The notes beneath the pieces were generated by a model, which was not told where the DNA came from, did not search any database, and saw only the letters and a program-made list of their open reading frames with translations. Below are positions 40,465 to 64,000 of a stretch of 64,000 nucleotides of DNA, piece by piece. Numbering within the stretch: the first letter of the stretch is position 1; each line of letters opens with the position of its first letter. Both the position numbers and the translations under genes were made by a program. Where the stretch lies: NCBI GenBank assembly GCA_963727455.1, contig CAVSGG010000005.1, forward strand, positions 32,001-96,000, written 5' to 3'. This DNA comes from Candidatus Krumholzibacteriota bacterium (GTDB taxonomy: Bacteria > Krumholzibacteriota > Krumholzibacteriia > JAJRXK01).

Positions 40465-40920
40465 ATGCGTCGAGGCCTCTTTCTGCTCTCGTGCCTACTG
40501 TTGTTCGGCATGCTGGTGCCAGGGTCCGCTCGGGCCACGCGCTCGGAGATGTGGAGTCTTCCCACCTATGAACCGGCACGTTGTCTGACCTGCCATACCT
40601 CTTCCGAGAGCGCACTCGACAACGATCCCTCTTTGGCAACGCAGTTGAATCCTTTCGGAGTCGACTGGAATTCGCTCGGTCGCGTCTGGGGCGAACAGAT
40701 CGCCAAGCGTGACAGTGACGGTGACCAGTGTATCAACGGTGCCGAGCTGGGCGATTATACCGGGACGCAGTGGACGGGTCCTTACGTGGAGGATCCGACT
40801 CGCAATGAACAAAACAGCAATCCCGGCGTTGTCGACTGCACCCGTGCCTCGATCAACGATCGGAGCTGGGGTATTCTCAAGGCCGTGTTCGGAGAATCGA
40901 ACAAGTTCAAATACCGATAA
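40465..40920 (+). CDS. Small secreted protein with CxxCH motif, temptin-like DSDGD segment and C-terminal SWG-x-LK tail
   Basis: Signal peptide (…SARA); CLTCH; LNPFG.DW......W....AKRDSDGD...NGAELGD; ends SWGILKAVFGESNKFKYR. Confidence 0.75.
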   Translation: MRRGLFLLSCLLLFGMLVPGSARATRSEMWSLPTYEPARCLTCHTSSESALDNDPSLATQLNPFGVDWNSLGRVWGEQIAKRDSDGDQCINGAELGDYTGTQWTGPYVEDPTRNEQNSNPGVVDCTRASINDRSWGILKAVFGESNKFKYR

Positions 40921-41002
40921 TTCATCTGGGTGCAAACCCTTCTTGTCTCAGCCGACCAGCTTCGCGCTGGAGGCGTGTTTTTTTGCGAGGTGAAGCAAGG
41001 CG

Positions 41003-42292
41003 ATGCAGACGGTACGCGTTGTTCTGGGCGGCCAGTGGGGGGATGAGGGCAAGGGGAAGATCGTGGACTGCCTCGCGGCGGACGTGGATCTCGTGGCGCG
41101 CTTTCAGGGTGGCGCCAATGCCGGCCACACCGTGAAAGTGGGAGACCAGGAGTTCGTACTTCATCTGCTCCCCACCGGAGTGCTGCACGAGAGGGTGCGC
41201 TGCTTTCTTGGAGCGGCGATGGTGGTGGACACCTGGGCCCTGCTGGATGAGCTGGATGAGCTGAAGAAAGCCGGGATCGATGTGGAGGATCGAGTTCACA
41301 TCGCCACCTCGGCCCATTTGGTACTGCCTTTTCACCGTAGGGTCGACGAGCTGCGCGAGAAGAGCCTTCAGCGCAAGAGCATCGGCACCACCGGCTGCGG
41401 CATCGGTCCCACCTACGAGGACAAGATGGCGCGCATGGGAATGCGTGCCTCCGATCTCCTTCGCACCGATGAGAACCTGAAGCGCTTGGTGATCGAGAAA
41501 GTGCTGCGCGCGAATCAATACATTGCGGCTCGCTTCGAGGCCCCGGCCTTGGCGGCGGAAGCCCTCGCGGTCGAATTGGTGGAGCAGGCCCAGCGTCTGC
41601 GACCGATGATCAAGAGCCCCTACGAGTTCATGGCACCCGTGCGCAACGGCGCCTGGAATGCGCTCTTGGAGGGGGCCCAGGGCACCCTCTTGGACATCGA
41701 TCACGGTAGCTACCCCTTCGTGACCTCCAGCAGCTGTACTGTGGGAGGCGCTCTGATCGGCACTGGGCTTTCGCCGTGGCGCATCAGCGCGGTGACCTTG
41801 GTGATGAAGGCCTATTGCACACGCGTCGGGAATGGCCCGTTTCCCACCGAATTGCACGGTGACGAAGCCGAGGAGTTGCGCCGGCTCGGACACGAGTTTG
41901 GTGCGACGACCGGTCGTCCACGACGCCCAGGTTGGTTCGACGCGGTTGCCGCCAGGTACGCGGTCGATATCAATGGCGCCACCGAACTCGCGCTGACGAA
42001 GCTGGACGTCCTCAGCGGGATGGAACGGATCAAAGTCTGCACGGGGTACACCATCGACGATGAGCCGGTCGATTCCTTCCCCGATGACGCCTTGCGGCTC
42101 GAGCGTTGCAAGCCACGCTTCATCGAGCTCCCCGGCTGGGAGGGCGAATTGTCCGAAGCCAAGAGCTTCGAGGACCTTCCGGAGAATACCCGCGGCTACA
42201 TCAAAGAGCTGGAGAAGCTCACGGGCTGTCGGGCTCGCTACGTCTCCACCGGGCCCCAACGCGATCATTTCATCGATCGCGGCGAAGCCTGA
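41003..42292 (+). CDS. purA: Adenylosuccinate synthetase
   Basis: QWGDEGKGK, GGANAGHT, IGTTG.GIGP.Y.DK, EGAQG, TRVG.GPFPTE, GATTGRPRR. Confidence 0.97.
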   Translation: MQTVRVVLGGQWGDEGKGKIVDCLAADVDLVARFQGGANAGHTVKVGDQEFVLHLLPTGVLHERVRCFLGAAMVVDTWALLDELDELKKAGIDVEDRVHIATSAHLVLPFHRRVDELREKSLQRKSIGTTGCGIGPTYEDKMARMGMRASDLLRTDENLKRLVIEKVLRANQYIAARFEAPALAAEALAVELVEQAQRLRPMIKSPYEFMAPVRNGAWNALLEGAQGTLLDIDHGSYPFVTSSSCTVGGALIGTGLSPWRISAVTLVMKAYCTRVGNGPFPTELHGDEAEELRRLGHEFGATTGRPRRPGWFDAVAARYAVDINGATELALTKLDVLSGMERIKVCTGYTIDDEPVDSFPDDALRLERCKPRFIELPGWEGELSEAKSFEDLPENTRGYIKELEKLTGCRARYVSTGPQRDHFIDRGEA

Positions 42293-42447
42293 AAATTTGC
42301 AGATTTCCAGCTTTGTTCCCACAGGCGGAGGGACAGTCCGCCCTCAGGACCTCATTCGCGGCACGACGAGAAGCAACTCGACTCCACCGGGTTGCGATGC
42401 CCTTTTGGCACGTATCCTGTTCTGCTGCAATTTGAGGTCTGAAATCG

Positions 42448-43362
42448 ATGCACTGGCTCTACTGGATTACTCTCGCTCTCGCGATCGCGGCTCTCGGATC
42501 CTACGGCTTCCAATTCTGGCGGCGGCGTGGACGACTCGAGGCTCTGGCGCGGCGGCACCACATGCATCGCCCCAAGGGAGGCGAGTTTGAAACGGTCCTG
42601 AAGACACTCCCGGAAAATTGGACGAATGCCGGACTGCGAGACATCCTGGTGGGCACCGATGGGAGTGGACGTTACTTCTCCGCACGCAAGGGGTGGGGGG
42701 GAGAGATGCATGAGGTGTTTCTCGTCGAATTGAGTCAGCATACCCCCGCACGGGGACTTCAACTGCAGAGCAGACGAAAGAAAACCGACTCGGCCAGCTT
42801 GCACATGGGCTGGAATCTGACGCCGGAGCAAGCCCTGGATGCGACGGCACGCGAAGTCGTGCAGCGGGTACTCCGCGAATTTGCCGCCTTCAAGATGCAT
42901 CACCCCAGACCGCAGATCTCCTTGGAAGTGGGGGACAAGGGTGCGGTTCTCTACGCGCCGGCAGCAGGGGAGGAGCAGCGAATGCAATTCATTGCGGCCG
43001 CGCGCGTTCTGCGGGGAGATCTCCTGCACTGCCTCTTCCGACGCGCTTCCATCAGCACGAACCCTGCTTCTTCCTCCAAGCCCGAAGAACCGGCCCTTCC
43101 CGAGATCGAGGAAGTCCATCCCGACATCGAGCGTGCTCTGGGCAGCCTGGAGGCCGAGCCTGTCGTGAGCGCCAAGGAGCTGTTGGCGGAGAAACCGCCT
43201 CCGCCCAAGAAGGGCTGGCAACGGGTGAACGGCAAAGAGGTCTTCCAGATTCCCGAGCCCGAGGACAGAGTCGTGGTGCTCTCGGCCAGTGCCTCGCACA
43301 CGAAAGCGATCAAGCCCATCAAGGGCGTGGATCAAGACAAGTCCAAGTTCTTCTTGCCCTGA
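42448..43362 (+). CDS. Hypothetical protein with N-terminal membrane anchor
   Basis: 304-aa ORF filling the purA-tRNA gap; hydrophobic N-terminus followed by RRRGR; no recognised family. Confidence 0.55.
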   Translation: MHWLYWITLALAIAALGSYGFQFWRRRGRLEALARRHHMHRPKGGEFETVLKTLPENWTNAGLRDILVGTDGSGRYFSARKGWGGEMHEVFLVELSQHTPARGLQLQSRRKKTDSASLHMGWNLTPEQALDATAREVVQRVLREFAAFKMHHPRPQISLEVGDKGAVLYAPAAGEEQRMQFIAAARVLRGDLLHCLFRRASISTNPASSSKPEEPALPEIEEVHPDIERALGSLEAEPVVSAKELLAEKPPPPKKGWQRVNGKEVFQIPEPEDRVVVLSASASHTKAIKPIKGVDQDKSKFFLP

Positions 43363-43405
43363 GTGCGCTTCGCGCTCGTCTCTTGCCCTATCCGAGTTCT
43401 CACGG

Positions 43406-43434
43406 TTGCCTGCACGGGCCTTCCTGGCTACACT
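43406..43434 (+). promoter_or_regulatory. Putative sigma70 promoter for tRNA-Lys
   Basis: TTGCCT-17 nt-TACACT followed by a GC-rich discriminator-like stretch. Confidence 0.5.
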
Positions 43435-43504
43435 ACCGGTCCGCCGCCGCCTCGAAAGCAGCGGCACCCCTCTGCAGTCTCGCACCCGCGAGGCAGTCTC
43501 AGGT

Positions 43505-43580
43505 GGGCCTCTAGCTCATCAGGTAGAGCAACGGACTTTTAATCCGTAGGTGCTGGGTTCGAGTCCCAGGGGGCCCACCA
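43505..43580 (+). tRNA. tRNA-Lys (anticodon TTT)
   Basis: Acceptor GGGCCTC/GGGGCCC, anticodon stem ACGGA-CTTTTAA-TCCGT, GGTTCGAGT T-loop, encoded CCA; 76 nt. Confidence 0.95.
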
Positions 43581-43601
43581 GGTAACTCTAGCGAGTTACC
43601 T
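43580..43601 (+). terminator. Hairpin immediately after tRNA-Lys
   Basis: Perfect 9-bp stem AGGTAACTC-TAGC-GAGTTACCT; weak U-tract. Confidence 0.4.
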
Positions 43602-43696
43602 AGCTTGTAGAATCGCCAGGAAAGCACCAACAAATGCGGTGTGAGAGTCGTAGCTTACTGACGGTGGCAAAGCGACGTCACTGGAGGGGGAAGAGC

Positions 43697-45469
43697 ATGG
43701 ATCGTGTGAAGAAGGCAGAATTCGGTGTTCTTCTGGCCCTACTCGCGATCTGCTCGTCTGTTCCGGAGACAACTTGCGCTGCCGCGGGTCCAGATGCGGC
43801 GTACTCCGAGTATGCGGGGATCTATCTGCACGGTCCGCTCGAGGTCCTGGAGGTTGGTGCGGTGGACGACTACCTCTCGGTGGTACCGCCATTCTGGGGA
43901 TCGAAGCCGTACTTCGTGAAGGACGGCGCCGAGACTTTCTCGATGGCATTGCCGCGTCCGGAGCCCGGTCGGACCGTAAGCTTCGAGCGTAGTGCCGACG
44001 GCACCGTCGAGGCGCTGCTGATGTCGGGAGTGGATGATTCCTACGACGGCAAGCGATTCGTAAGAAGCACGAAGGAAGGACTAACGCCAGGGCAACTCTT
44101 TCTCGCAAGAAAACCACATGAGGCCGCGAAAGCGGTGCTCGCCGATTCGTCGCTGACGGCAGACGATCTCTATCGCTTCGCCTTCCAGCATCTGCTTAGA
44201 CATCCTTCCCGACAATCCGATGCTGCTGTTTTCCTGCAGGACCTGCTGGTGGCCCATCCGAAGCACGCCAAGCTCAGCGCGCTCTACGCCTATAGTCTCG
44301 TCGCCGCTGGCCGTCGCAGCGAAGCGCCAGCGGCTCTGGAAATCGCGTTGCGGCTGGATCCACAGAACAGTATCGCCCAGGAAACGTACCGACGTCTCAC
44401 GCAGCGTGAACCGCCTCTAGGGGAGGGTTATCGCGCTGTTCTTCCCTTCTCACTTCAGGAAGCCTATGCGCCGCCGACCCGGGAGGAGATCAGAACAGTA
44501 CGACGTGCATGGGCGGAGCGGGACCTCTCAGCGAAGGACGTGGAGGTGGTCCAGGAATTCCAGCTAAAGATTCCGCAGGCAAGCTTCCACGTCGCCATGT
44601 TGCGTCATCAGGTCGATGGCAACGAACACTACGGGGCAGTGCTCATTCCCGAAGGTGCGGCCGGTCCCCTGCCGGTGGTCGTCGCGGCGCGTGGCGTGGA
44701 CTTCTACTACTCGCCGCTGGACATCTCCGAGGGCGTCGAGACGACGACGGCGCTCGGCGATGCCGCATCCAACTTCATGTACCTCATCCCGTGCATGCGC
44801 GGCAATACCATCATCGTGAACGGAATGGAGTTCAGCTCCGGAGGGGACGCCTCCGACGCGTGGGACGGCGCAACGGACGACACCCTGGCTTTTCTCAACG
44901 CGGCGCTGGAGACCTTTCCTCAGGCCGACCAGAGGCGGATTGCGATCGTCGGCAAAAGCCGCGGTGGCTCGGTCGCGCTTCTGGCCGGAGAGCGCGACCG
45001 CCGTATCAGTTTGGTCCAGAGCATTTCGGGCCCGACTGACCATTTCAAAGCAATGAATCCCTTCTATGGCTGGAGCTGGGCGGTTGTTCTCGCGGACGAC
45101 ATGCGGGACGAGGAGCCACCTTCCATGGAGGAGCGAGACGAGAGCAGCCAGGTGTTCGATCACTTCTTCGACCGTGCGCTGACGGAGAACGAAAATCTCG
45201 AAGACGTCCGCCAGCGAATGCTCGCTTCGTCTGCGCTGTATTTCCTCGAGAATTTGCCACGCACTGACGCTTACTACGGGGCGGAGGACCGGGCGGTGCC
45301 ACTGGCCAACGCTATTCGGCTCCGCGAGCGAGATGCGGCGCTCGGCAACTCTGGTCCCGATTTGACGGTACACATTTTCGACGGTCGAGGACACGACACG
45401 GACCCCTACCTCGTGAACCAGAGCATCAAGAAGCGACTCGTCCGCTGGGCAGGAGTTTCTGCGAGGTAG
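43697..45469 (+). CDS. Secreted TPR-containing alpha/beta hydrolase (S9 peptidase/esterase-like)
   Basis: ATG 43697 after GGAGG; signal-like N-terminus; TPR (ALRLDPQN); nucleophile elbow GKSRGG, G.ED..VP Asp, GRGHD His. Confidence 0.75.
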   Translation: MDRVKKAEFGVLLALLAICSSVPETTCAAAGPDAAYSEYAGIYLHGPLEVLEVGAVDDYLSVVPPFWGSKPYFVKDGAETFSMALPRPEPGRTVSFERSADGTVEALLMSGVDDSYDGKRFVRSTKEGLTPGQLFLARKPHEAAKAVLADSSLTADDLYRFAFQHLLRHPSRQSDAAVFLQDLLVAHPKHAKLSALYAYSLVAAGRRSEAPAALEIALRLDPQNSIAQETYRRLTQREPPLGEGYRAVLPFSLQEAYAPPTREEIRTVRRAWAERDLSAKDVEVVQEFQLKIPQASFHVAMLRHQVDGNEHYGAVLIPEGAAGPLPVVVAARGVDFYYSPLDISEGVETTTALGDAASNFMYLIPCMRGNTIIVNGMEFSSGGDASDAWDGATDDTLAFLNAALETFPQADQRRIAIVGKSRGGSVALLAGERDRRISLVQSISGPTDHFKAMNPFYGWSWAVVLADDMRDEEPPSMEERDESSQVFDHFFDRALTENENLEDVRQRMLASSALYFLENLPRTDAYYGAEDRAVPLANAIRLRERDAALGNSGPDLTVHIFDGRGHDTDPYLVNQSIKKRLVRWAGVSAR

Positions 45470-45495
45470 AATCTGGTACCACCGGGAGTACTGCA

Positions 45496-45675
45496 ATGAA
45501 GGGACGAATTGTCTTGTCCCTTGTCTGCCTGCTCATCGCCGGTTGTTCGGAGAGTACCGAGCCTGGAAGCGTCAGAAAGCCCGGACGCCGTACAGCGACC
45601 GGGCTCGTTGGTATTCGGTTTTTCGAACGTGGATTCGGTCTCTGCTCGAGTCCGAACCCCAGAGAGCAGCTCTAG
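45496..45675 (+). pseudogene. 59-aa lipoprotein ORF, probably a truncated remnant
   Basis: GGGAG RBS, MKGRIVLSLVCLLIAG-CSESTEP lipoprotein signal; remainder runs through the convergent gene's terminator; absent from the ORF track. Confidence 0.4.
45574..45605 (-). terminator. Rho-independent terminator of the 45672-46367 gene
   Basis: Minus strand AGCCCGG-TCGCTGTACGGCGT-CCGGGCT followed by TTCT. Confidence 0.5.
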
Positions 45676-46367
45676 TAGCGCGCCTTGAGGGAACCCCAGG
45701 AGGTCTCCTCGGAAGTGACCTCACAGCTGGGGTAGATCACGATCGTCGCCTGCACCACATCACCCCAGGCTCCGGTCGTAGGGCCATTGCCGCAGTTGTC
45801 GTACATGAAGTACGGGTAGTCCGCGGGTAAGCCCATTAGCTGGGTGGTAGCAACGATCGCTGCGTTGCTGATGGTGTAGGTCATGCAGTTGATATACCCG
45901 TCAAAGGCTCCAAAGACGGAGATATCACTGACGACCCTCTGCAACACTCCACCCACGTACATATGCGTGGAGGTCACTACCATCTGATCGACTTGAGCGG
46001 TGTAATCTTCATCACCCCAGGGTCCGGCCGCTGCGAACCAGAAGCTCCCGTTCTGGTAATGCGTCTCGTACTTGACATAGCCGGTGCCCGCGACGCGGGT
46101 ATCCGAGGTGAGGGTCGGGGGGGCCATGATCGACGGACAGGTCAGAGTCCATTGCGTTCCCAGACTGCTTCCGTCCCAGGATTGTGCGTTGATGGTGTTG
46201 CCGACCACGCCTTCATGGTAGGCGGGCGCCGGCCAGGATTCGCTGAAGTGACCCGGGAGCACTTGGCCCCCCAGATCGATGGTGTCATAGGTACCGACCA
46301 CTGGCGGTGCAGCGAGGGCCAGCGTCGGGAGAAGGAGGATTACGACGAACGGGACCAGTCGTCTCAT
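45672..46367 (-). CDS. Secreted hypothetical protein with C-terminal SWG-x-LK tail
   Basis: ATG 46367 after AAGGAG; signal peptide MRRLVPFVVILLLPTLALA; beta-rich, four Cys; ends ETSWGSLKARY. Confidence 0.8.
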   Translation of the reverse strand: MRRLVPFVVILLLPTLALAAPPVVGTYDTIDLGGQVLPGHFSESWPAPAYHEGVVGNTINAQSWDGSSLGTQWTLTCPSIMAPPTLTSDTRVAGTGYVKYETHYQNGSFWFAAAGPWGDEDYTAQVDQMVVTSTHMYVGGVLQRVVSDISVFGAFDGYINCMTYTISNAAIVATTQLMGLPADYPYFMYDNCGNGPTTGAWGDVVQATIVIYPSCEVTSEETSWGSLKARY

Positions 46368-46491
46368 GAACAGCTCCTTTCGCGGATTGCGATGATCTCT
46401 CGATCTAGTCCGATGAAGGACCATAGTGGGACTCGGGACACCAAGTGACCGCACCGTGGAGCCTGGCGATGGGACCTGATGAACCAGGGTC

Positions 46492-46520
46492 AGTATAGAA
46501 GTTCCAGATCTTTATGTCGA
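46492..46520 (-). promoter_or_regulatory. Putative sigma70 promoter for the 45672-46367 gene
   Basis: Minus strand TCGACA-17 nt-TATACT. Confidence 0.55.
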
Positions 46521-46839
46521 GTATGTTTCTGGGAAGGAACGACCAAGTAGGGCACCCCGTCACCTAACGCCTCGATCCCACCATCCACCGTCCAGGAGAC
46601 GAGCCAATTCCCCGGGTTCTCGAATACGAATCGACTTGCGTGAGAGATCGAGGATCTTGCGGCGCTCGTGAGCGTTCAGCTCGCGCGAGAGTGTATGCAG
46701 AGCCGTACAGGCTCCGGGAGCGCGGCCATTCGGCGCTGCAGCCGAGTTCGCGACAACTTTCTGGGCCCGTTTCACGTAGGAAATATTCGTCGGGAACGAT
46801 CCTCAGCATGACCCTCGTAAAGGATTGAGAAGTAAGAAG

Positions 46840-48108: not shown

Positions 48109-48110
48109 AG

Positions 48111-48851
48111 ATGAAAGCGGTGACCGGAAACGGCAATGGAGTCGCTCTTGCTCTGCACGATGTCGAGAAGACTTACGTGATGGGGACGGAGAAAGTCCAC
48201 GCCCTACGCGGCGTCTCGCTGCAGGTGCGCAAGAACGAGTACGTGGCCATCATGGGGCCCTCGGGCTCGGGCAAATCCACTCTGATGAACGTGATCGGCT
48301 GCCTCGACGTGCCCACCAAGGGTAACTATACGCTGGAGGGGCAGGCGGTCGCGGATATGACGCAGTCTGAACTGGCCGAGATTCGAAACCTGAGGATCGG
48401 TTTCGTGTTCCAGACCTTCAATCTGATTCCACGCGCGGACGTCTTTCACAACGTCGAACTACCTCTGATCTACGGGGGAGTGCGCAGCCGGGAGCGACGT
48501 GAACGAGCGGAAAGCGCCATCGCGCGGGTGGGCCTGAGCGACCGCATGAAGCACAAACCGAACGAACTCTCTGGAGGTCAGCGTCAACGCGTCGCCATCG
48601 CGCGCGCCATCGTTCTAAATCCCTCCATCATTCTCGCGGACGAACCCACGGGAAATCTGGACAGCAGAACCGGTGACGAGATCATGGCGATCTTCGACGA
48701 GTTGCACGCGGCCGGACATACCATCATCGTGGTCACGCACGAGGACTACATCGCCGACTACGCCTCACGATCGATCCGGCTGAAGGACGGCCTGGTTGAG
48801 AGCGATGAGGCCAAGGGGCGTAAGGCGATGGCCGGAGGCTTGATGTCGTGA
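48111..48851 (+). CDS. ABC transporter ATP-binding protein (MacB/LolD-type)
   Basis: [38 protein letters not shown]. Confidence 0.93.
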
Positions 48852-50098: not shown

Positions 50099-50106
50099 GT
50101 GAATCC

Positions 50107-53248: not shown

Positions 53249-53369
53249 GTTGGAGAATCCAGTCACCACCCTGAGGCAGTCGATCACCCGCCGGGCTTCG
53301 CGCCTTCCAGGCCGTCGAAATTCTCAGCATTGAATCTGCCCGAATTCGCGCGCTCGAAGTTCGACTGGA

Positions 53370-53673: not shown

Positions 53674-54225
53674 ATGGACCACCCACGTCCGTCTTTGAAA
53701 TCTCTCGCCCTTCTCTCCGTAGTTCTTTGCTTGCTGATCGTCAACGCGGCGAACGCTCAAGAGTTGAGCGGCGTAACCAATCCGGTGGGAGGGGGGTTCA
53801 TCTGCCCTAACACCATACTCGTTGATCTTAACGTTGATGCGGCAGTGGTGGATCTTCGCGGTTTCTCACTCACGCTGAGTTACGATCCTGCCGTGCTCGA
53901 TCCAATTTCCGTGAGCGCCGGATCACTAGTGGCTTCGGCGTCCTGTGCCAACACGCTGTATTGGATCGACGCCGGCACCAACGATGGGAGTTTGGAAGTT
54001 GATCTAGCCCTCCTTGGATGTTCCGTGAACGGACCGGGGTCGGTTCTGAGCATCGAATTCGAAGGAGTCGGCGACGGGACCACGACTCTGCAGTGTTCTA
54101 ACAGTATCTTTCGGGACAGCGCGAATGCGGAAATCCCCGTGAGCTGTCTTCCCGTCGACATCAGCTATAGCTGCCCCGTGCCCGCGGCAGGACATTCCTG
54201 GGGCATGTTGAAGACCAGTTACTGA
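53674..54225 (+). CDS. Secreted single cohesin-like domain protein with C-terminal SWG-x-LK tail
   Basis: ATG 53674 after AAGGAG; signal peptide (…ANA|Q); L.GFSLTLSYDPAVL...V.AG, G.G.VL.I.F, G.T.L cohesin-type pattern; ends HSWGMLKTSY. Confidence 0.78.
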   Translation: MDHPRPSLKSLALLSVVLCLLIVNAANAQELSGVTNPVGGGFICPNTILVDLNVDAAVVDLRGFSLTLSYDPAVLDPISVSAGSLVASASCANTLYWIDAGTNDGSLEVDLALLGCSVNGPGSVLSIEFEGVGDGTTTLQCSNSIFRDSANAEIPVSCLPVDISYSCPVPAAGHSWGMLKTSY

Positions 54226-54267
54226 GTTCTTTTGTACTTGGGATTGAAAGTCCCGGAGAGGTAGATC

Positions 54268-57200
54268 ATGTCACGCGCCCGAGTCTTTTCGACAGTTCTT
54301 TCGTTCCTCGCTCTGATTGTCTTCGCTGCTGGTTCGGCCTGGGCTCAGAACGCAATCGTCACCGAAAACGCACTCCCGGGAAATCCCCCGAGCGAGTGGG
54401 ACGTGAGTGGGGCCGGTGACCAGAGCATCCAGGGCTTCGCGACCGACATCAGCGTCGACCAGGGTGAGACCATCGACTTCAAGATCAGAACCGATGCCAG
54501 CAGCTATCGCATCGACATCTATCGGCTCGGCTTTTACGGGGGCGACGGCGCGCGCAAAGTCGCGACGGTTCTTCCCTCGGCCACCCTGCCCCAGACTCAA
54601 CCCTCCTGCATCTCGGACTCTGCAACCGGTTGCCTGGACTGCGGAAACTGGGACGTATCCGCCTCGTGGGCCGTGCCCGTGGACGCCACTTCGGGCATCT
54701 ACCTCGCCAAGCTAGTGCGTACCGATCCGGAAGACGGACGCGCCAGCCATATCGTCTTCATCGTGCGCGACGATGACGGTGGTAGCGATCTTCTCTTTCA
54801 GACCTCGGACACCACCTGGCAGGCCTACAATCGATGGGGCGAAAGCGATCCGACGGGGGGCTATAGCATCTACGAGGGTCCCACCGGCAAGGCCGACAAG
54901 ATCAGTTACAACCGGCCATTCGGTACCCGCGCCTATCCCACCGAAGACTGGCTTTTCAATGCCGAATATCCGATGGTGCGCTGGCTCGAGCGCAACGGCT
55001 TCGATGTGAGCTACTTCACTGACGTCGATACCGATCGTCGTGGCGCCGAGATCCTGGAACACCAGGTCTTCATGTCGGTCGGCCATGACGAGTACTGGTC
55101 CCGTGCCGCCCGCGAGAACGTAACGGCAGCGCGGGATGCGGGCGTGAACCTGGCCTTCTTCAGCGGGAACGAGATCTACTGGAAGATTCGTTGGGAAGAT
55201 AGCATCGACGGCAACGGAACACCGATGAGGACCCTCGTGTGTTACAAAGAGGGCGATCTCGGCGAGAACCAGTGTTTCGACAAATGTGACCCCGTGTCCG
55301 ACGTATGGACGGGTCTGTGGAGATCCGGCTGTGACTACACGCCGCCGGCCGACGGCTGTGAGCCCGAGAACGCCCTCTCGGGACAGATCAGCTGGCTGGG
55401 TACCACGGGTGCCATCACCGTGCCCAGCACTTACAAGGATTTACCCCTGTGGCGCAACACCTCCATCGCCACCCTGGGGCCCGAGGAGACCGCCACGTTT
55501 CCCAGCGGGACCCTGGGCTACGAGTGGGACTTCGAGCAGTACGAGGACTCCTATCCGGCGGGCCGGATTCGTATGTCCGAAACCCACCAGGATGGAGAGA
55601 CGCATCAGCTCTCGCTGTATCGTCATAGCAGCGGGGCCCTGGTCTTTGGCGCGGGCACCGTCCAGTGGTCATGGGGTCTCGATGCGAATCACGATCGCTC
55701 GGGGGGCGCAGAGGACGCGCGCATGCAGCAAGCCACGGTAAACGTACTCGCGGACATGGGCGTGCAACCGGCGACCCTGCAGACGGGATTGGTGGCAGCA
55801 ACTCCTCTTTCGGATTCCACCGCGCCCGTTTCCGTGATCGCATTTCCCACCGACGGCTCTTCGGTGGAAGTCGGTACTCCGGCCACCATCTCGGGGACCG
55901 CTTCGGATAGCGGTGGAGGCGCGGTCGCTTTGATCGAACTCTCCTTCGACGGGGGAGCCACCTGGCAGACGGCCCAGGGGCTTTCGAATTGGAGCTACCA
56001 GTGGACTCCCACCAGTACCGGTCCGGTCACCATCATGAGCCGGGCGACGGACGGAGCCTTCAACACCCAAACTCCCGGGGCGGGAATCAGCCTCACGGTC
56101 GATCCGCACGTCTGCCCCTGCACCCTCTGGAGTGACGCCGTCATTCCGGGAACCATCGATAGCGGCGATGCCTTGGCCGTGGAACTGGGGATGAAATTCC
56201 AGACCGAGGAGAACGGCTACATCACCGCCATTCGCTTCTACAAGGCCGCGACGAACACCGGCGTTCACGTGGGAAATCTGTGGGCTAGCGATGGCACCTT
56301 ACTGGGTAGCGCGACCTTCTCGGCCGAGTCCGCTTCCGGTTGGCAGGAGGAGCCGCTCAATCCGCCGGTGGCCGTCACCGCCAACTCCACCTATGTCGTC
56401 TCGTACCACACGAATACGGGTTACTACTCGGTCGATAGCGGATACTTCGCCAGCACCGGTCTGAGCAATCCTCCTCTACGGGCCCTGGCCGAGGGAGAGG
56501 AAGGGAGCAACGGAGTCTACAAATACGGTGCCACCAGTGCCTTCCCGACCGACGCCTTCAACTCGTCCAACTACTGGGTAGACGTGCGCTTCCACACGAG
56601 CGCGGTCGACGATCAAGCGCCCTACCTGACAATTCACAGCCCCGCCACCGGCGCATTGGGAGTTGCGGTGGAAAGCAAGGTCACCGCGACCTTCAACGAA
56701 TCGGTCGATCCGTTGAGCGTGGTTTTCGAGTTGCGCGATGCGGGCAACAATCTCGTCACGACCAACTTCAGCTATGACGGGCCCTCGCGTACGGCGATCC
56801 TCGACCCCGCGGTCGATTTGGATTATTCCAGTCAGTACACCGCTACTCTGAGCGACGCGACCGATCTGGCGTCGAACTCGCTATCCGCGCCGGTGAGTTG
56901 GTCGTTCAACACTGAAGATGTGCCGCCGCCGCCTCCCGATGAGGGCCCGGGCGGTCCCATCCTGGTGGTGGGCGATGCGGCCAATCCCTTCACTCGTTAC
57001 CCTGCCGAGATTCTGCGCACTGAGGGCTTGAACGCCTTCACCGCCAGCGACATCACTCTCATCGACGCGAGTGTCTTGGCCAACTACGACGTGGTGATTC
57101 TGGGGGAGATGGCGCTCTCCGCCGCACAGGTCACCATGTTCAGCGACTGGGTGAACGCGGGCGGCAATCTCATCGCCCTACGACCGGACAAGCAGCTGGC

Positions 57201-60200
57201 CTCACTCTTGGGACTGAGCGATGCCAGCGGTACGCTGGACGACGGATATCTGCTGGTAGATACCTCAGTGGGACCGGGAGTGGGAATTGTCGGTGAGACC
57301 ATCCAGTACCACAGTAGCGCGGATCTCTACGATCTCGCGGGAGCGACCGCTCTGGCCACCCTCTATTCCGATGCGACCACGGCCACGACGCATCCCGCGG
57401 TCTCGCTGGTGAGCGTGGGAAGCAACGGCGGTCAGGCAGCCGCCTTCAGCTATGATCTGGCGCGTTCGGTGGTCTACACACGTCAGGGAAATCCCGCCTG
57501 GGCCGGTCAAGAACGCGACGGCACCACGCCAATCCGTTCGGACGATCTCTTCTTTGGCGATGCCGCAGGCGATCCGCAAGCGGATTGGGTCGACCTGAAC
57601 AAGGTCGCGATCCCACAGGCCGACGAACAGCAGCGCCTGCTCGCGAACCTCGTCCTCACGATGAACGAAGATCGCAAACCTCTGCCGCGATTTTGGTATT
57701 TCCCAAGAGGATTGCGTGCGGTAGTGGTAATGACGGGTGACGACCATGGCTCGGGGAGCAACTCGGTTGGTCGTTTCGACATCTACAAGGCGAGTGATCC
57801 CTCCGGCTGTTCCGTAGCGGACTGGGAATGCGTGCGAGCGAGCACCTATCTTTATCCCGCGTCGGGGGGAATGACCGACGCTCAGGCGGTCTATTACCAA
57901 TCCCTGGGATTCGAGATTGGAGTGCACGTCACAACCTCCTGTGGAGATTGGACCGAGTCCTCCTTGGCCTCGGACTACACCCAGCAACTGGGTGACTTCT
58001 ACACTCTGTTTCCCAGTATGCCCACGCCGGATTCGGAGCGTACGCACTGCATCGCCTGGAGCGAGTGGGCCACCCAACCCAAGATCGAGCTTCAGAACGG
58101 CATCCGCCTGGATACCAACTACTACTACTGGCCGGGAAGCTGGCTGCAGGATCGACCGGGCATGTTCACCGGCTCGGGAATGCCCATGCGTTTCGCCGAT
58201 CTCGATGGAACGATGATCGATGTATATCAGGCGACGACACAGATGACGGACGAGTCGGATCAGAGCTTCCCCTACACCATCGACACGCTCCTCGATCGGG
58301 CCCAGGGACCCGAAGGATACTTCGGATTCTTCACCGCCAACATGCACAACGACAGCGTCACGCATGCCTCCGCATCGGCGATCATCGCCTCCGCGCAAGC
58401 GCGCGGGGTGCCGGTGATCTCCGCTCGTCAATTGCTCACCTGGATCGATGCGCGCAACAGCTCGTCGTTCTCCAACCTGGTGTGGTCCTCGAATACCCTG
58501 AATTTCGACGTTGCCCGTTCCGCCTCGGCCCTGAATCTCGAAGGAATGATCCCTGTGCAGGTGGGGGCGGCAACTCTGCAGAGCCTCAGTGGGGACCTTG
58601 GATCGGTCTGGGAGCGCACGGAGATCATCAAGGGCATTCAGTACGCGATCTTTCCCGCCGAGAGTGGCAGCTACGTTGCCACTTACGAAGTGGACACGAC
58701 ACCGCCGGTGATCAGCAACGTGAACGCGGCTCCCGCGATCGATGGAACTGCAGTGATCACCTGGGATACCGACGAAGCGGCTAGCTCGCGGGTGGACTAT
58801 GGCACTGATGCGGGCAACCTGAATCTCAGCGTGTCCGACGCGACCCTGGAGAGCAGCCACAGTTTGACCCTGACCGGGCTGGCTTCCGCGACGACCTACT
58901 ACTATCGGGTGAGCTCGGCCGACGCAGGCGCATTGCTCAGCACCGAACCGCCCACCGGAAACGCTCCGCTGAGCTTCCTGACCCCGGTGGGGCCCTGTCT
59001 GAACGATGCCACGGTGGCCGATTTCGCGGCCGGAACGCCCGATGCCAATGTCTACATTTCCAAGATCTTCGACGGCGAGCTCACCCTCGCGCCGACCGAG
59101 GTGGCGGAATTTGATGGCAGCGCCGTGCCGGCAGGTTGGAACAGCGGACTGTGGGATCCCTCCGGCAGCGCGACGGTTTCCGGTGGAGTCCTCACGCTCG
59201 ATGCGGCCTATACGGGCACTGACCAGGTCTACGGTCCTGATCGGGCAGTGGAGTTTGCGGGCACCTTCCAGAACGTCGGAGGCCAGCACTGTGGTTTTGG
59301 CGTGACCTTCAACGAAACCAACTGGGCGATCTTCAGCACCGGCGTCAGCGGGGGCACGCTCTACGCCAGGGTGGCCGATGGCGGCACGCTCATCGACTTC
59401 GACTTGGGCTCTTCCACGCTGGGAAGCGAGCATCTCTATCGCATCGAATGGGCAAGCTCCGAGGTGAGGTTCTACATCGATGACGTTCTGGTTCATACCG
59501 AGTCCATCGTGCTCAGTACCTCCATGCGCCCTCTGGCCAGTGATCTCAACCCCGGCGGACCGGATCTTACGATCGACTGGATGCGCATGTCGCCGTATGC
59601 ATCCTCGGGTACCTATCTCTCGCGAGTGTACGATGGGGGGGAGGCAACCAACTGGGGCATGATCAACTGGGACGCCGTGGAACCGCTCAATACGAGCGTG
59701 AGTGTGGCGGTGCGCATTGGCAATACTGCAACCCCCGATGCTTCCTGGTCTCCCTTCGGTGTCATCGCCAATCCAGGTGACGTGGTGGGCGGCAACAGTC
59801 GCTACGTACAGTACCGCGTCATTCTGACGAGCTCGAATCCTCTGAACAACCCCCTCCAGAAAGATGTGGTACTCGAGTGTGCCCCGGGACCGGATGTCGA
59901 TCCTCCGGTGATCCTGAACGTGGTGGCAACACCATCCATCGACGGAACCGCGGCCACTGTAAGCTGGACCACCTTGGAGGCAGCGGATTCGCGGGTAGAT
60001 TACGATACCTCACCGACGCCGCTGACACTGCAGGAAAGTGACGCCTCTCTGGTGTTCAATCACTCGGTGGATCTGACCGGACTTACCCCGGGACAAACCT
60101 ATTACTTCCGGGTCAGCTCGGCGGACGCAGCCAGCAACAGTGCCACCGAGCCGATCCTCGCGGATCCAGCGCTGAGCTTCACGACACCGGCGCCCGCGTG

Positions 60201-62442
60201 CGCGATGGTGAGCACGAGCGGCGAATTCGCGGCGGGAAGTTCGGATGCCGGCATCACTGTGGCCGAGATCGACGATGGTGCCCTCATTTTGACCCCCACC
60301 GAGGGTTCAGATTTCAGCGGCACGAGCCTGCCTTCGGGTTGGCAGAGCACACCTTGGGTCGCCGGAGGCGGAGGAGTGGTGAGCGGGGGCGTCCTCTCGG
60401 TGGACGGTGCTCTTGTCGGTACGAACACGGTCTATTCGCCGGGACGGGTCCTGGAATTCCAGGCGACCTTCGGCCCCGAGATTTTCCAACACGTGGGCTT
60501 TGCGGTGGATTTCGACACCGTGGATAGCTGGGCCATGTTCTCGACTTCCAATCAGACCAGCGATCTCTATGCTCGCACTTCTCCGGGAGGGGCCGACGTC
60601 AACCTGGGTAGTGGCTACGTGGGAAGTTCGCATCTCTATCGCATCGAGTGGAATGCCGATAGCGTCCTGTTCTACATCGATGGAGTGCTGGTCAACACCC
60701 AGAACGTGAGTATCGCCACCGACATGCGGCCCGTCGCCAGCGACGTTCACTACAACGATGGCAATCTCATCGCAATTGACTGGCTGCGGATGACGCCCTA
60801 CGCCTCATCCGGCACTTGGGAATCGACGATTCACGATACGGGGCAGTCCAATTCCACCTGGCATACTCTGAGCTGGACGCAGAACGTGCCGGACGGAACT
60901 TCAGTTGTGGTGAGTTCTCGCGCTGGCGACACGCCGACACCCGATGGAAGTTGGAGCAGCTACACTCCGGTGGCCTCCTCCGGGACGGACCTCGCTCTCG
61001 CAGGGCAGTACCTGCAACTCCGGGTGCAGCTCTCCAGTCTCGATGGCACTGCGACCCCGGTCTTCGAGGACTACTCGGTCACCTGCACCGGCTGTCTCGA
61101 CAACACACCGCCGGACGCCTTGACGAACCTGACGGCGACTCAGGTCAAGTCGGGCAATCCGGTGGGCCAACTCACACAGATCACCGTGAGTTGGAGCGGA
61201 AGTGAGCCGGGTTCTACCGTGGAAGTGTTCCGCAAAGGCTTCGGTGACTATCCCGCATACGATGACGGACCCACCCCAGGAGTTGCGCCCACGTTGCCGG
61301 CCGATCCGGCGGCGGCAGCGAGTGAGGGTTGGAGTTCGGTATATCAAGGCTCCGGTCTCGAGTTCACAGAGTTGCCTCCCTCGCGTGACTTCTGGTATTA
61401 CGTCGCATTCGTCACTGACGCCTGCGAGAATGTCTCGGCCGTCTCGAACATGACGACAGGCACCTTGAGCTATCATCTGGGCGACGTGTCGGATGGAGTG
61501 ACCGCAGGGACGGGAAACAACGATGTGGCCCTCGAGGACATCTCTTACCTCGGCGCTCATTACGGAACAAGCCGCGGCGAGGCCCTCTACGAAGCGGCCC
61601 TGGATGTGGGACCAACGAGCACGACGACCATCGATGGCCGTCCGACGACCGATGGTCTTATAGGCTTTGAGGATCTCATCCTGTTCGCGATCAACTTCGG
61701 CGTCGTTTCCAAACAGGAGACCGCTTGGACCCCGCCCAAGACGGCAGGCATCAACTCTCTGGTGTGGCAAGCGCCGGCGACTCTGCCGGCGGCGGGAGAG
61801 GTGGTCGATCTACCGCTCGTCATGGATGGTAATGGGGCCGTGCTGGGACTCAGCACGCGATTGCAGTGGGATCATTCAGTCTTGGCCTTCCAGGGTTTCT
61901 ACGCAGGAGAGCTTCTCTCCAAGCAGGAGGGCACGGAGCTTCTTTTGCAGCCGGAAGAGGGTGTGATGGATCTGACTCTGTTGGGCGTGCGAGAGAGGGG
62001 GATCCAGGGAAGGGGAATCCTTGCTCACGCGAGCTTCAAGGTGCTTAAACAGGCCGATCCAGGGTTTGCGACCGGAGAAGTCGTTGCGCGTGATCTCAAC
62101 AACACAAAGGTGGATGTGACGGTGGAACTGTCGCATGACCAGGCGCCTGTGATCAGCAGACCGCTCGTGACGGCTCTTCACCCGAACTATCCGAACCCCT
62201 TCAACCCCAGCACCTCGATCGCTTTCGATTTGGCCCGAAGTGGACCGGTCTCGCTGAAAATTTACAGCGTGAGCGGCCGCCTGGTAAGAACTCTGATCAA
62301 CGAGCTCCGTCCGGCCGGCAGTTTCGTCGAGGTGTGGAATGGAACCGATGACACGGGGCGTGGAGTGGCCTCGGGCAGCTACCTGGTGCGGCTCCACACC
62401 GAGGCGGGATCACAGATTCAGCGGATGATCCTGAGCAAGTAA
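54268..62442 (+). CDS. Giant secreted multidomain protein (DMF-amidase beta-like/DUF6605, Ig, DUF4082, SbsA-Ig, deacetylase-like barrel, 2x FN3+LamG-like, dockerin-like, cohesin-like, FlgD-Ig CTD)
   Basis: Signal peptide; TWQAYN.WG, SYNRP, SVGHDEYWS, FFSGN, VFGAGTVQW; VELGMKF...NYWVDV (DUF4082); C-terminal PNYPNPFNP.T.I.F......V.LKIY...GRLVRTL. Confidence 0.85.
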   Translation: MSRARVFSTVLSFLALIVFAAGSAWAQNAIVTENALPGNPPSEWDVSGAGDQSIQGFATDISVDQGETIDFKIRTDASSYRIDIYRLGFYGGDGARKVATVLPSATLPQTQPSCISDSATGCLDCGNWDVSASWAVPVDATSGIYLAKLVRTDPEDGRASHIVFIVRDDDGGSDLLFQTSDTTWQAYNRWGESDPTGGYSIYEGPTGKADKISYNRPFGTRAYPTEDWLFNAEYPMVRWLERNGFDVSYFTDVDTDRRGAEILEHQVFMSVGHDEYWSRAARENVTAARDAGVNLAFFSGNEIYWKIRWEDSIDGNGTPMRTLVCYKEGDLGENQCFDKCDPVSDVWTGLWRSGCDYTPPADGCEPENALSGQISWLGTTGAITVPSTYKDLPLWRNTSIATLGPEETATFPSGTLGYEWDFEQYEDSYPAGRIRMSETHQDGETHQLSLYRHSSGALVFGAGTVQWSWGLDANHDRSGGAEDARMQQATVNVLADMGVQPATLQTGLVAATPLSDSTAPVSVIAFPTDGSSVEVGTPATISGTASDSGGGAVALIELSFDGGATWQTAQGLSNWSYQWTPTSTGPVTIMSRATDGAFNTQTPGAGISLTVDPHVCPCTLWSDAVIPGTIDSGDALAVELGMKFQTEENGYITAIRFYKAATNTGVHVGNLWASDGTLLGSATFSAESASGWQEEPLNPPVAVTANSTYVVSYHTNTGYYSVDSGYFASTGLSNPPLRALAEGEEGSNGVYKYGATSAFPTDAFNSSNYWVDVRFHTSAVDDQAPYLTIHSPATGALGVAVESKVTATFNESVDPLSVVFELRDAGNNLVTTNFSYDGPSRTAILDPAVDLDYSSQYTATLSDATDLASNSLSAPVSWSFNTEDVPPPPPDEGPGGPILVVGDAANPFTRYPAEILRTEGLNAFTASDITLIDASVLANYDVVILGEMALSAAQVTMFSDWVNAGGNLIALRPDKQLASLLGLSDASGTLDDGYLLVDTSVGPGVGIVGETIQYHSSADLYDLAGATALATLYSDATTATTHPAVSLVSVGSNGGQAAAFSYDLARSVVYTRQGNPAWAGQERDGTTPIRSDDLFFGDAAGDPQADWVDLNKVAIPQADEQQRLLANLVLTMNEDRKPLPRFWYFPRGLRAVVVMTGDDHGSGSNSVGRFDIYKASDPSGCSVADWECVRASTYLYPASGGMTDAQAVYYQSLGFEIGVHVTTSCGDWTESSLASDYTQQLGDFYTLFPSMPTPDSERTHCIAWSEWATQPKIELQNGIRLDTNYYYWPGSWLQDRPGMFTGSGMPMRFADLDGTMIDVYQATTQMTDESDQSFPYTIDTLLDRAQGPEGYFGFFTANMHNDSVTHASASAIIASAQARGVPVISARQLLTWIDARNSSSFSNLVWSSNTLNFDVARSASALNLEGMIPVQVGAATLQSLSGDLGSVWERTEIIKGIQYAIFPAESGSYVATYEVDTTPPVISNVNAAPAIDGTAVITWDTDEAASSRVDYGTDAGNLNLSVSDATLESSHSLTLTGLASATTYYYRVSSADAGALLSTEPPTGNAPLSFLTPVGPCLNDATVADFAAGTPDANVYISKIFDGELTLAPTEVAEFDGSAVPAGWNSGLWDPSGSATVSGGVLTLDAAYTGTDQVYGPDRAVEFAGTFQNVGGQHCGFGVTFNETNWAIFSTGVSGGTLYARVADGGTLIDFDLGSSTLGSEHLYRIEWASSEVRFYIDDVLVHTESIVLSTSMRPLASDLNPGGPDLTIDWMRMSPYASSGTYLSRVYDGGEATNWGMINWDAVEPLNTSVSVAVRIGNTATPDASWSPFGVIANPGDVVGGNSRYVQYRVILTSSNPLNNPLQKDVVLECAPGPDVDPPVILNVVATPSIDGTAATVSWTTLEAADSRVDYDTSPTPLTLQESDASLVFNHSVDLTGLTPGQTYYFRVSSADAASNSATEPILADPALSFTTPAPACAMVSTSGEFAAGSSDAGITVAEIDDGALILTPTEGSDFSGTSLPSGWQSTPWVAGGGGVVSGGVLSVDGALVGTNTVYSPGRVLEFQATFGPEIFQHVGFAVDFDTVDSWAMFSTSNQTSDLYARTSPGGADVNLGSGYVGSSHLYRIEWNADSVLFYIDGVLVNTQNVSIATDMRPVASDVHYNDGNLIAIDWLRMTPYASSGTWESTIHDTGQSNSTWHTLSWTQNVPDGTSVVVSSRAGDTPTPDGSWSSYTPVASSGTDLALAGQYLQLRVQLSSLDGTATPVFEDYSVTCTGCLDNTPPDALTNLTATQVKSGNPVGQLTQITVSWSGSEPGSTVEVFRKGFGDYPAYDDGPTPGVAPTLPADPAAAASEGWSSVYQGSGLEFTELPPSRDFWYYVAFVTDACENVSAVSNMTTGTLSYHLGDVSDGVTAGTGNNDVALEDISYLGAHYGTSRGEALYEAALDVGPTSTTTIDGRPTTDGLIGFEDLILFAINFGVVSKQETAWTPPKTAGINSLVWQAPATLPAAGEVVDLPLVMDGNGAVLGLSTRLQWDHSVLAFQGFYAGELLSKQEGTELLLQPEEGVMDLTLLGVRERGIQGRGILAHASFKVLKQADPGFATGEVVARDLNNTKVDVTVELSHDQAPVISRPLVTALHPNYPNPFNPSTSIAFDLARSGPVSLKIYSVSGRLVRTLINELRPAGSFVEVWNGTDDTGRGVASGSYLVRLHTEAGSQIQRMILSK
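58693..61086 (+). repeat. Intragenic tandem duplication of about 400 aa
   Basis: Unit 1 starts DTTPPVISNV (58693), unit 2 DVDPPVILNV (59893), 1200 nt apart; shared SRVDY, VSGGVL, QH.GF, HLYRIEW, FYID.VLV, MRP.ASD, IDW.RM.PYASSGT, TPD.SWS. Confidence 0.85.
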
Positions 62443-62450
62443 GCCAACCC

Positions 62451-63677
62451 TTGTCTGAACGCTCGACTCGATTGCACCGCAAGCTTCATCCGGGCGAATT
62501 CGTCGCCCTGATGGCTTTGATGACCTCCCTGGTGGCGTTGTCGATCGACGGAATGCTTCCCGCGCTGGCGCCGATTGGCCGCGATCTGGGCGCCAGCGCC
62601 GCCAACCAAACTCAATGGGTGGTCACGGCGCTTCTCATCGGATTGGCACTGGGACAGCTCGTCTACGGTCCCCTCAGTGACAGCACTGGTCGCAAGGGCC
62701 CCGTGCACGTGGGCCTGATCCTCTTCGCCGTAGGTTGCCTACTCTGCATCGTGGCGGGCGACTTTCGTACCATGCTGGCGGGACGGTTGCTGCAGGGCCT
62801 GGGCGCGGCAGGGCCACGCAGCGTCTCCATCGCCCTCATCCGCGACCTTCACGCTGGTCGCGAGATGGCCAAGATCATGTCTCTCATCATGTCGGTGTTC
62901 ATCCTGGTGCCCATCCTGGCACCGGCGGTGGGGGAGCTCATTCTGCTGCTCGTAAACTGGCGCGGGATCTTCGGGTTCTTTCTTTTGCTCTCGCTTCTGG
63001 TGTTGTTCTGGTTCGCGCTGCGTCAACCCGAGACGCTGCCGCGTCAACGCAGAAAGCCATTCACTTTCAGGAAACTCGGCAGGACAGTGGCAGTGGTCCT
63101 GCGGGACCGGGCCGCCATTGGCTTCACCTTGACTTCCGGGATCTCCTCGGGCGCCTTCATCGGCTATCTCAGTTCGGCCCAGCAGATCTTCCAGGACGTC
63201 TACCAAGTAGGCTCGCGCTTCGCCCTGTACTTTGCGATTCTGGCCGCGTCGATCGGCCTGGCTGCGCTACTGAACGGTCGGCTTGTGATGCGCTTGGGGA
63301 TGATCCGGCTCTCCACCTGGGCATTACGCTCGATTTGCGTTTTGTCGGCTGCGTTTCTTCTGGCCTCATTCGGCTTGCCCGGCAAGCTGGGTCTCCTCTG
63401 GTTCATGGTCTACATGATTCTGACCTTCTTCTGTGTGGGGATCCTCTTTGGCAACATGAACGCGCTGGCCATGGAGACCCTGGGCGAAATCGCCGGCGTG
63501 GGAGCTGCGGTGGTGGCCTCCGTCTCGCTCTCGGTTTCGATCGTCTTGGGCGCAATCATCGGTCAGAGCTTCAACGGCACCGTCATCCCCCTGGTGGGCG
63601 GATTTGCCCTGTTGAGTCTCTGCAGCCTACCTCTCATCGCCTGGGCGGACCGTGGCCGGATCACCCATGGCGTGTGA
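62451..63677 (+). CDS. Bcr/CflA family multidrug MFS transporter
   Basis: ALSIDGMLPAL, GQLVYGPLSD..GRK, GRLLQGLG, APAVG, PETL; about 12 TM helices. Confidence 0.9.
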   Translation: MSERSTRLHRKLHPGEFVALMALMTSLVALSIDGMLPALAPIGRDLGASAANQTQWVVTALLIGLALGQLVYGPLSDSTGRKGPVHVGLILFAVGCLLCIVAGDFRTMLAGRLLQGLGAAGPRSVSIALIRDLHAGREMAKIMSLIMSVFILVPILAPAVGELILLLVNWRGIFGFFLLLSLLVLFWFALRQPETLPRQRRKPFTFRKLGRTVAVVLRDRAAIGFTLTSGISSGAFIGYLSSAQQIFQDVYQVGSRFALYFAILAASIGLAALLNGRLVMRLGMIRLSTWALRSICVLSAAFLLASFGLPGKLGLLWFMVYMILTFFCVGILFGNMNALAMETLGEIAGVGAAVVASVSLSVSIVLGAIIGQSFNGTVIPLVGGFALLSLCSLPLIAWADRGRITHGV

Positions 63678-63713
63678 AGCGAATTCACATGGACCGTGAA
63701 GATCGTGGCAAGA

Positions 63714-64000
63714 TCAGCGGGAGCCGAACTGCGCTTTCAATCGGCCGATTGTCGTCGTTTCGGAGGGCACGAGGTTCTCGAGGACCACGCTGGCGGCATC
63801 GTAGAGAATCACGACGAGATCGATCGGCGTTCCGTCATTCAGATTTCCGGTGAGGTGGTTTTCAGCCCCGAGTCCCTGGCTACCCTCGATCGAAAGATGA
63901 TGTCCGGTCACCGTGAGCACAGAGCTTCCCCAGAGCACGATGTGGCCCTGGTAGTCGCCACCGGAGAGGAAGATCTTGGAGTTCTTGAAGGCCTCGATGC
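63714..64000 (-). CDS. Hypothetical protein, C-terminal part (5' end beyond window), ending in a variant TIG-x-LK tail
   Basis: Frame open to the window edge (…IEAFKNSKIFLSGGDYQGHIVLWGSS…LTGNLNDGTPIDL…); ends VPSETTTIGRLKAQFGSR. Confidence 0.65.
   Translation of the reverse strand, partial: IEAFKNSKIFLSGGDYQGHIVLWGSSVLTVTGHHLSIEGSQGLGAENHLTGNLNDGTPIDLVVILYDAASVVLENLVPSETTTIGRLKAQFGSR

Follow-up and report, generated by a model that had tools for sequence, protein, structure and literature searches.

The DNA analysed here (the window) is a 64,000-nucleotide stretch of contig CAVSGG010000005.1 from the genome of a Candidatus Krumholzibacteriota bacterium (GCA_963727455.1). It encodes four proteins that end in a similar short tail, here called the tag, and one neighbour that ends in a type IX secretion system (T9SS) C-terminal domain (CTD). 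An original prediction from the letters of the window had described a nine-residue motif on unrelated proteins and proposed that it is a mobile sorting or anchoring signal, read by some export or processing machinery. All four nine-residue tails translate as predicted, in position and strand, and lie 0, 0, 3 or 9 residues before the stop codon. The tail is therefore real, but its length was underestimated: the conserved unit begins six residues further upstream and spans about 15 residues (Table 1). Numbering from the Ser/Thr that opens the core, Val stands at -6 in three of the four copies, as had been noted.

Table 1 Features of the window, and the operon discussed in the text (window positions unless a contig is named)
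Feature	Position	Strand	Description	Evidence
Tag copy 1	40846..40890	+	Junction plus core, then 9 more residues	Kept in 9/10 homologs, the 10th frameshifted
Passenger 1	40465..40920	+	151-aa Sec protein, Temptin_C domain with CxxCH	PF24784, E 5e-11
Tag copy 2	45675..45719	-	Ends at the stop codon	Predicted extended linker plus separate helix (model residues 205-211)
Passenger 2	45672..46367	-	231-aa Sec protein	Small beta-barrel model, pLDDT 95
Tag copy 3	54178..54222	+	Ends at the stop codon
Passenger 3	53677..54225	+	Sec protein with one cohesin module; inferred start codon	PF00963, E 3e-5, over cut-off
Tag copy 4	63726..63770	-	Ile replaces Trp; then 3 residues
Passenger 4, 3' end	63714..64000	-	Gly-rich 370-aa protein, start beyond the window (C5:96826)
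Untagged context gene	54268..62442	+	2,724-aa protein, T9SS type A / FlgD-Ig C-terminal domain	TIGR04183, over cut-off
Operon elsewhere in the genome	C18:25510-33378		X-dockerin gene, tagged cohesin-fold genes, C25-B

Passenger 1 also matches the NCBIfam model diheme_GEGP below its cut-off and may be an exported c-type cytochrome; a basic extension 3' of its tag is kept by all intact homologs. Passenger 2 has no Pfam match, its model has a middling best structural match (Z 8.5, root-mean-square deviation (rmsd) 4.1, 126 residues aligned), and a Foldseek search with it returned no match at E<=0.001. Among 85 homologs of this gene, 77 carry the tag pattern and three a visible variant of it, and five are truncated or frameshifted. 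Passenger 4 continues beyond the window as a 370-aa open reading frame (ORF; C5:95714-96826, on the contig that carries the window) with a hydrophobic N-terminus and without a Pfam or NCBIfam match. The cohesin gene of passenger 3 lies directly upstream of the T9SS cargo gene, so that both C-terminal signals are used side by side.

A C-terminal tag on unrelated exported proteins

The motif is strictly C-terminal across the 3.46-Mb genome. A six-frame search with the regular expression of the original prediction gave 33 matches, none further than 25 residues from a stop codon; the zone within this distance holds 21.6% of residues. With the four window ORFs left out, 29/29 matches are still stop-proximal (p about 5e-20), and reversed ORFs gave one match. 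An iterated matrix identified 51 tagged ORFs at a score >= 23.65 (one low-complexity ORF at 23.6 was excluded). When the matrix was built from 72 tails of other genomes only, it gave 43 matches in the 2,900 roughly called genes of this 89% complete genome; all 43 are C-terminal and all fall inside the 51-ORF set. The consensus was derived from 115 tails, 40 of the genome's 51 and 75 from the operon loci described below (three of these 75 are also from this genome), and reads [VIT]-[PAG]-[TAVN]-[EQ]-x-x-[ST]-[WF]-[GS]-x-[VIL]-K-[AS]-[LQR]-[YF], with 0-9 further residues after the core. A tag profile matched 151/151 sampled genomes of the phylum; in one of its nine families, f3, counts were low at first and rose to 15-52 per genome with a broader profile. 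The same approach against 1.84 billion representatives, too insensitive to give the distribution of the tag, yielded 20 matches at E<=0.001, of which 13 are C-terminal tags and seven are low-complexity or repeat artefacts.

The passengers are indeed unrelated, 49 of them falling into 39 BLAST clusters. Their domains include cohesin, lamin-tail, GDSL, beta-helix, FG-GAP, phosphoesterase, C25 and choice-of-anchor F-like domains, a set that appears typical of exported proteins. By a crude heuristic, signal peptides were found in 36/47 tagged proteins vs 395/2,582 other genes, an enrichment; the same heuristic scores 37/59 for T9SS cargo. Of the tagged proteins that it missed, a few are fragments, and most look hydrophobic at the N-terminus on visual inspection. 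Tagged passengers have a median length of 230 aa vs 799 aa for T9SS cargo. One apparent exception is an RND permease ORF (C7:174367-178773): it continues in frame into a tagged protein that has an internal signal peptide itself, owing to either a lost stop codon or an assembly artefact.

The tag can also replace a T9SS domain. Two proteins encoded 5 kb apart, one tagged and one with a T9SS domain, share 58% identity across 236 residues; their alignment stops exactly at the junction, beyond which the former carries the tag core and the latter the T9SS domain. The proposal of a mobile C-terminal tag on exported proteins is thus upheld. A tagged C25-domain protein (C17:45975-47294) has Ser at the catalytic Cys position, and its paralogs on contig C10 bear the T9SS domain instead.

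The tail also corresponds to no catalogued signal, as had been suspected. No Pfam or NCBIfam model covers it in the 43 tagged proteins or the 75 tails, the T9SS CTD models (A, B and C) match neither set, and the consensus contains no GxY. An ESM Atlas search with the last 25 residues gave no usable match. A 17-aa window above 1.6 hydropathy, indicating a transmembrane segment after the core, was found in only 1/51 tails. The Cys upstream of the core is present at -8 or -9 in three window copies, as described, but proved to depend on the passenger overall, lying at -12 to -7 in 19/51 tags. Lipid modification of this Cys was rejected because the residue is not conserved and there is no lipobox among the tagged proteins. 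In the open-access PMC and bioRxiv literature we found no description of the tag or of its operon, although motif tables in supplements could be missed by such a search.

That the tag is a degenerate PEP-CTERM-type signal for an exosortase is hardly credible. Its first residues are indeed Val-Pro, a weak resemblance to the PEP-CTERM protein PepA is seen in some passengers, and the genome has one exosortase (PF09721). This enzyme, however, shares its exopolysaccharide (EPS) operon with a PEP-CTERM substrate of its own, and the tag lacks the transmembrane segment. Moreover, exosortase occurs in only 69/151 genomes, and in family f5 in 1/60 (below cut-off) vs tags in 60/60. Exosortase was therefore rejected as the tag reader.

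In AlphaFold models of two tagged proteins that are unrelated to each other, the core forms a 7-residue helix of its own behind an extended linker (predicted local distance difference test (pLDDT) about 61-64 and 78-85 in this region). The amphipathic helix read from the motif spacing did not survive: the mean helical moment of the nine-residue core is 0.26 vs 0.29 for shuffles of the 115 tails. Penicillin-binding protein 5 (PBP5)-type anchors are C-terminal amphipathic membrane anchors, and a tag acting in this way on periplasmic proteins would fit a short aromatic and basic tail that is predicted helical, and would make machinery unnecessary. Such an anchor is nevertheless very unlikely, given this helical moment and a helix of only about 2.5 turns. 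The near-invariant G and K and the fixed upstream V point instead to sequence reading, and the tag swaps with an outer-membrane export signal.

An operon of tagged genes and the peptidase C25-B

Seven C25 genes are present in the genome. One of them, C25-B (C18:29080-33378), is preceded by a dockerin-like gene and three tagged genes. It combines a C25 domain (PF01364, E 1e-56) with a FlgD_ig C-terminal domain and is homologous to the PorU structure 6za2 (E 1e-27), but scores only 165 vs a cut-off of 420 with the PorU model NF033707 and 78.5 vs 450 with the PorU2 model NF052324. In a quick tree of 59 rows, C25-B forms a single clade apart from PorU (33 rows; Shimodaira-Hasegawa-like approximate likelihood ratio test (SH-aLRT) 100). 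The catalytic His and Cys are intact in 43/43 and 110/110 orthologs, and a catalytic-site profile finds C25-B in 144/151 genomes at E<=4e-22 (146 at 1e-9), in all nine families. NCBIfam PorU2 (NF052324) was rejected as the reader, with matches in 29/151 genomes, 0/151 over cut-off, that are a mix of PorU and another paralog.

Gingipains, which are C25 peptidases, cut after Arg or Lys, and the S1 pocket of RgpB uses Asp163 and Gln282 (excerpts of PMC4357240). A Glu that is invariant in C25-B (110/110) aligns with Gln282. A second Glu, within an E-x-x-F motif in 108/110, was equated with Asp163 by visual alignment over a variable loop, and acidic residues occur nearby in PorU, so this residue is not evidence for Lys specificity. 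A complex prediction of C25-B (950 aa) with the tag scored 0.00 and is not evidence either way.

Phylum-wide, the order of the operon is conserved. In 20 larger loci, four of them chosen since tags had already been seen nearby, an X-dockerin gene is followed by 1-6 tagged genes of 180-250 aa and then C25-B. The arrangement occurs in 8/9 families. A putative mltG gene often stands just upstream of the operon. At the 30 best C25-B loci, a tagged gene lies within 1.5 kb upstream in 27; a script found 23 of these and four were added on reading its output, where it had picked a wrong-strand ORF. Of the other three, one is at a contig edge and two have no upstream tag over the threshold. Control loci (exosortase and PorU, including six PorU) gave a tag in 0/26. 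Across families f2, f3, f7 and f9, the arrangement was found in 14/20 loci, with one locus lacking upstream DNA and one f2 copy lacking tags. On metagenome contigs of a separate subclade, tagged genes precede C25-B in 2/3, the third having no upstream DNA. Two C25-B copies are present in genomes G058, G006, G034 and G051, and at least one G006 copy has no upstream tagged genes. In G032, two tagged genes also lie upstream of a third C25 paralog, which was seen at family f4 loci only.

The other operon products resemble parts of a cohesin-dockerin system. The model of one tagged subunit shows the fold of a cohesin (Z 11.5, rmsd 3.1, 124 residues aligned, 2vo8). The untagged partner, whose gene occurs in 138/151 genomes, has the X-dockerin of CipA as its best match (2b59_B, E 2e-6) and contains a duplicated dockerin repeat. 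Few dockerin proteins were found in the genome, with two matching the operon profile. A cohesin-fold subunit with an X-dockerin partner recalls CipA of C. thermocellum with its sortase- or SLH (S-layer homology)-anchored cohesins, and the cellulosome-like proteins of Ca. Stygibacter offer a further comparison (excerpts of PMC8542988). Unlike in a cellulosome scaffoldin, the cohesins are single-module genes, each with its own tag, and dockerin binding is putative.

In sortase-pilin operons, the enzyme gene likewise stands beside a dedicated set of substrates. It is conceivable, though quite doubtful, that C25-B acts as a second Gram-negative sortase, cutting the tag and linking cohesin monomers either to one another or to the envelope as a covalent pilus- or coat-like scaffoldin. 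X-dockerin proteins would then cap or load this scaffoldin, and about 50 other small proteins would be grafted via the same tag. If true, the logic of sortase pili, that of cellulosomes and the T9SS would be merged in a phylum in which the T9SS itself may be without its usual motor.

How the tag may be read

The genome encodes core components of a T9SS: PorU over cut-off, SprA, 14 PorV-family matches and 54 type A domain matches. SprA was found in 150/151 genomes, and a PorU search across wider genome contigs gave four loci, all close relatives. GldM was found in 0/61 genomes, with control searches blank as well, and GldK and PorZ match only below cut-off in the 89%-complete genome. The T9SS here may lack the standard motor and ring. 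Most of the 14 PorV-family genes each stand directly behind a large cargo gene of their own, whose C-terminal domain is atypical, and one lies within the exosortase/EPS operon on contig C10. On C5, the PorU-PorV operon also encodes a 1,149-aa protein (C5:379592-383173) that matches SprA weakly, followed by an Omp85/TamA-like gene.

We give about even chances to the reading that the tail is a minimal T9SS-linked sorting signal, a stand-in for the 80-residue CTD, that would be processed by C25-B as a dedicated PorU paralog. It builds on features read directly from sequence: the Sec signal peptides, the C-terminal position, the passengers, the interchange with the T9SS domain, the presence of SprA, PorV and PorU, and C25-B after the tagged genes. 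A tagged protein would be exported by Sec and fold in the periplasm, its core [ST]-[WF]-G-x-[VIL]-K-x-x-[YF] would be read sequence-specifically, and the cargo would cross the outer membrane via SprA. C25-B, presumably itself a T9SS cargo with its PorU-like C-terminal domain, would cut off the tail and may join the new C-terminus to a surface amine. The founding substrates may have been single cohesin-fold proteins forming a surface platform for dockerin-bearing partners. The role of the tag as a sorting signal is inferred. The idea of an export or processing machinery is kept, and with this conserved PorU paralog it has gained a concrete candidate and is no longer wholly without a name.

Two cut sites may be considered. 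The first is a PorU-like junction at -6/-5. PorU cleaves at PT/GI in Prevotella intermedia (excerpts of PMC11969387), and the consensus for T9SS linker cleavage is T/E/D/N | G/A/S (excerpts of PMC10202324). A PorU-type junction is present in 29/62 type A linkers of the genome vs about 10% background, and the f3 tags resemble it closely, with A/S/G at -5 in 33/37, V at -4 in 30/37 and E at -3 in 27/37. The second would follow the conserved Lys at +5, as in cleavage by gingipains.

Several observations weigh against this reading. Regarding the cut sites, the PorU-type junction fits strictly in just 17/115 tails (58/115 when relaxed), and Pro at -5 in 55/115 speaks against a cut at -6/-5. The residue after the Lys is Ala or Ser in 99/115 tails, but small in only 23/37 in f3. 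The Lys itself is present in 115/115, an invariance that is in part a product of the scans, which demanded K/R at +5; the three variant tags among the passenger 2 homologs also have it. In f3 the operon is split: 0/4 C25-B loci have upstream tagged genes, and the dockerin gene adjoins tagged genes elsewhere in 4/5 genomes (by coordinates), yet these genomes are as rich in tags as given above. The tag, C25-B, SprA and the PorU machinery are near-universal in one phylum, so co-occurrence cannot single out the reader, and kin genomes are not independent in such counts. That GldM was not found and that PorZ and GldK match only below cut-off leaves the export step and the acceptor without an account, and the tag has neither the T9SS motifs B, D and E nor a beta-sandwich. 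Finally, Poribacteria gave no member of the C25-B clade, their one named match falling outside it; a related tail may be present in that phylum.

Some of this evidence would suit a tag that is an ultra-short T9SS signal for the ordinary PorV/PorU, or for a spare PorV-family barrel, with C25-B as an operon neighbour that has another job such as cohesin/dockerin maturation. The swap of the tail with a type A domain, aligned through the linker, would be expected, as would the split operon and the PorU-type junction of the f3 tags. Several of the 14 PorV-family genes have no adjacent cargo, and tagged genes adjoin T9SS cargo in 8/48 cases vs 100/2,792 other genes. There is also a precedent in the 40-55-residue CTDs of P. 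intermedia and in the 22 Hbp35 residues required for GFP (green fluorescent protein) secretion (excerpts of PMC11969387). We nevertheless regard this as unlikely, if plausible: the six PorU control loci carry no tags, the tag lacks motifs B, D and E, and no account is given of an active PorU paralog kept phylum-wide beside tagged genes.

It is also rather unlikely, in our judgement, that the tag is an uncleaved docking helix that binds a receptor non-covalently and so fastens small proteins to a T9SS carrier or a scaffold. Possible receptors are the X-dockerin protein, C25-B through its non-catalytic domains, and a lattice on the surface or in the periplasm. Docking would agree with the separate short helix predicted on two unrelated folds, with the fixed register of W, K and Y and the Lys inside the hydrophobic face, with the tolerance of 0-9 extra residues and the frequent Pro at -5, with the small size of the passengers, and with the dockerin gene that still stands beside tagged genes in f3. 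It does not explain why the neighbouring peptidase strictly keeps its catalytic pair and S1-side Glu, nor the PorU-like junction at a fixed distance.

Relation to known sorting systems and neighbouring genes

Like the T9SS type A CTD (TIGR04183 / PF18962, FlgD_ig-like PF13860), the tag is combined with a Sec signal on many unrelated passengers, is interchangeable with that domain on paralogs and appears to follow a similar linker motif. Like PorU (NF033707), the candidate enzyme is a C25 peptidase with a His-Cys pair and its own C-terminal domain. In contrast, the tag has about 15 residues vs 40-80, has no beta-sandwich or motifs B/D/E and sits on much smaller passengers, and C25-B is a separate clade below the NF033707 and NF052324 cut-offs. 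T9SS signals of variable length that are removed by linker cleavage are known from P. intermedia's short CTDs, which are 40-55-residue sheets of three strands bearing GxY and terminal basic motifs (excerpts of PMC11969387), and from type C or ChiA CTDs of about 100 residues (excerpts of PMC10202324). Compared with the former, the tag is about one third as long and predicted to be helical.

The tag equally resembles the tripartite signals of LPXTG/sortase, PEP-CTERM/exosortase, GlyGly-CTERM/rhombosortase and MYXO-CTERM/myxosortase, which are C-terminal, numerous per genome and marked by signature residues (excerpts of bioRxiv 10.1101/2023.06.07.544157). It shares with them signal peptides, non-homologous passengers and one candidate enzyme for many substrates. 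Unlike them, it has no transmembrane segment, obligatory Arg cluster or invariant Cys, and C25-B is, unlike the intramembrane proteases, predicted to be a soluble T9SS-exported C25 peptidase. The tag is therefore akin to T9SS CTDs and to sortase or sortase-pilin systems, yet a member of neither, as it has no CTD fold or model match and no transmembrane segment. It is a real element, undescribed in the literature searched, and a variant of sortase-type sorting with a testable candidate enzyme.

If processing by C25-B is true, the tag would be a bacterial sorting signal of 15 residues without a transmembrane segment and with a named candidate enzyme. It would allow surface proteins to be predicted for a whole uncultured phylum, most of which are now 'hypothetical'. 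Two open questions of the T9SS would become testable, namely the minimal size of an export signal and the choice of cargo by sortases. A C25 transpeptidase with a short peptide as its recognition site could serve as a protein-ligation tool as well; enzyme and tag can be tested in vitro without culture.

Two further observations concern the T9SS cargo gene of the window. Its 2,724-aa product contains a duplicated dockerin-like motif by eye and has a weak flexitail match (residues 2407-2478). On contig C1, a similar cohesin-tag gene lies 3' of a T9SS cargo gene.

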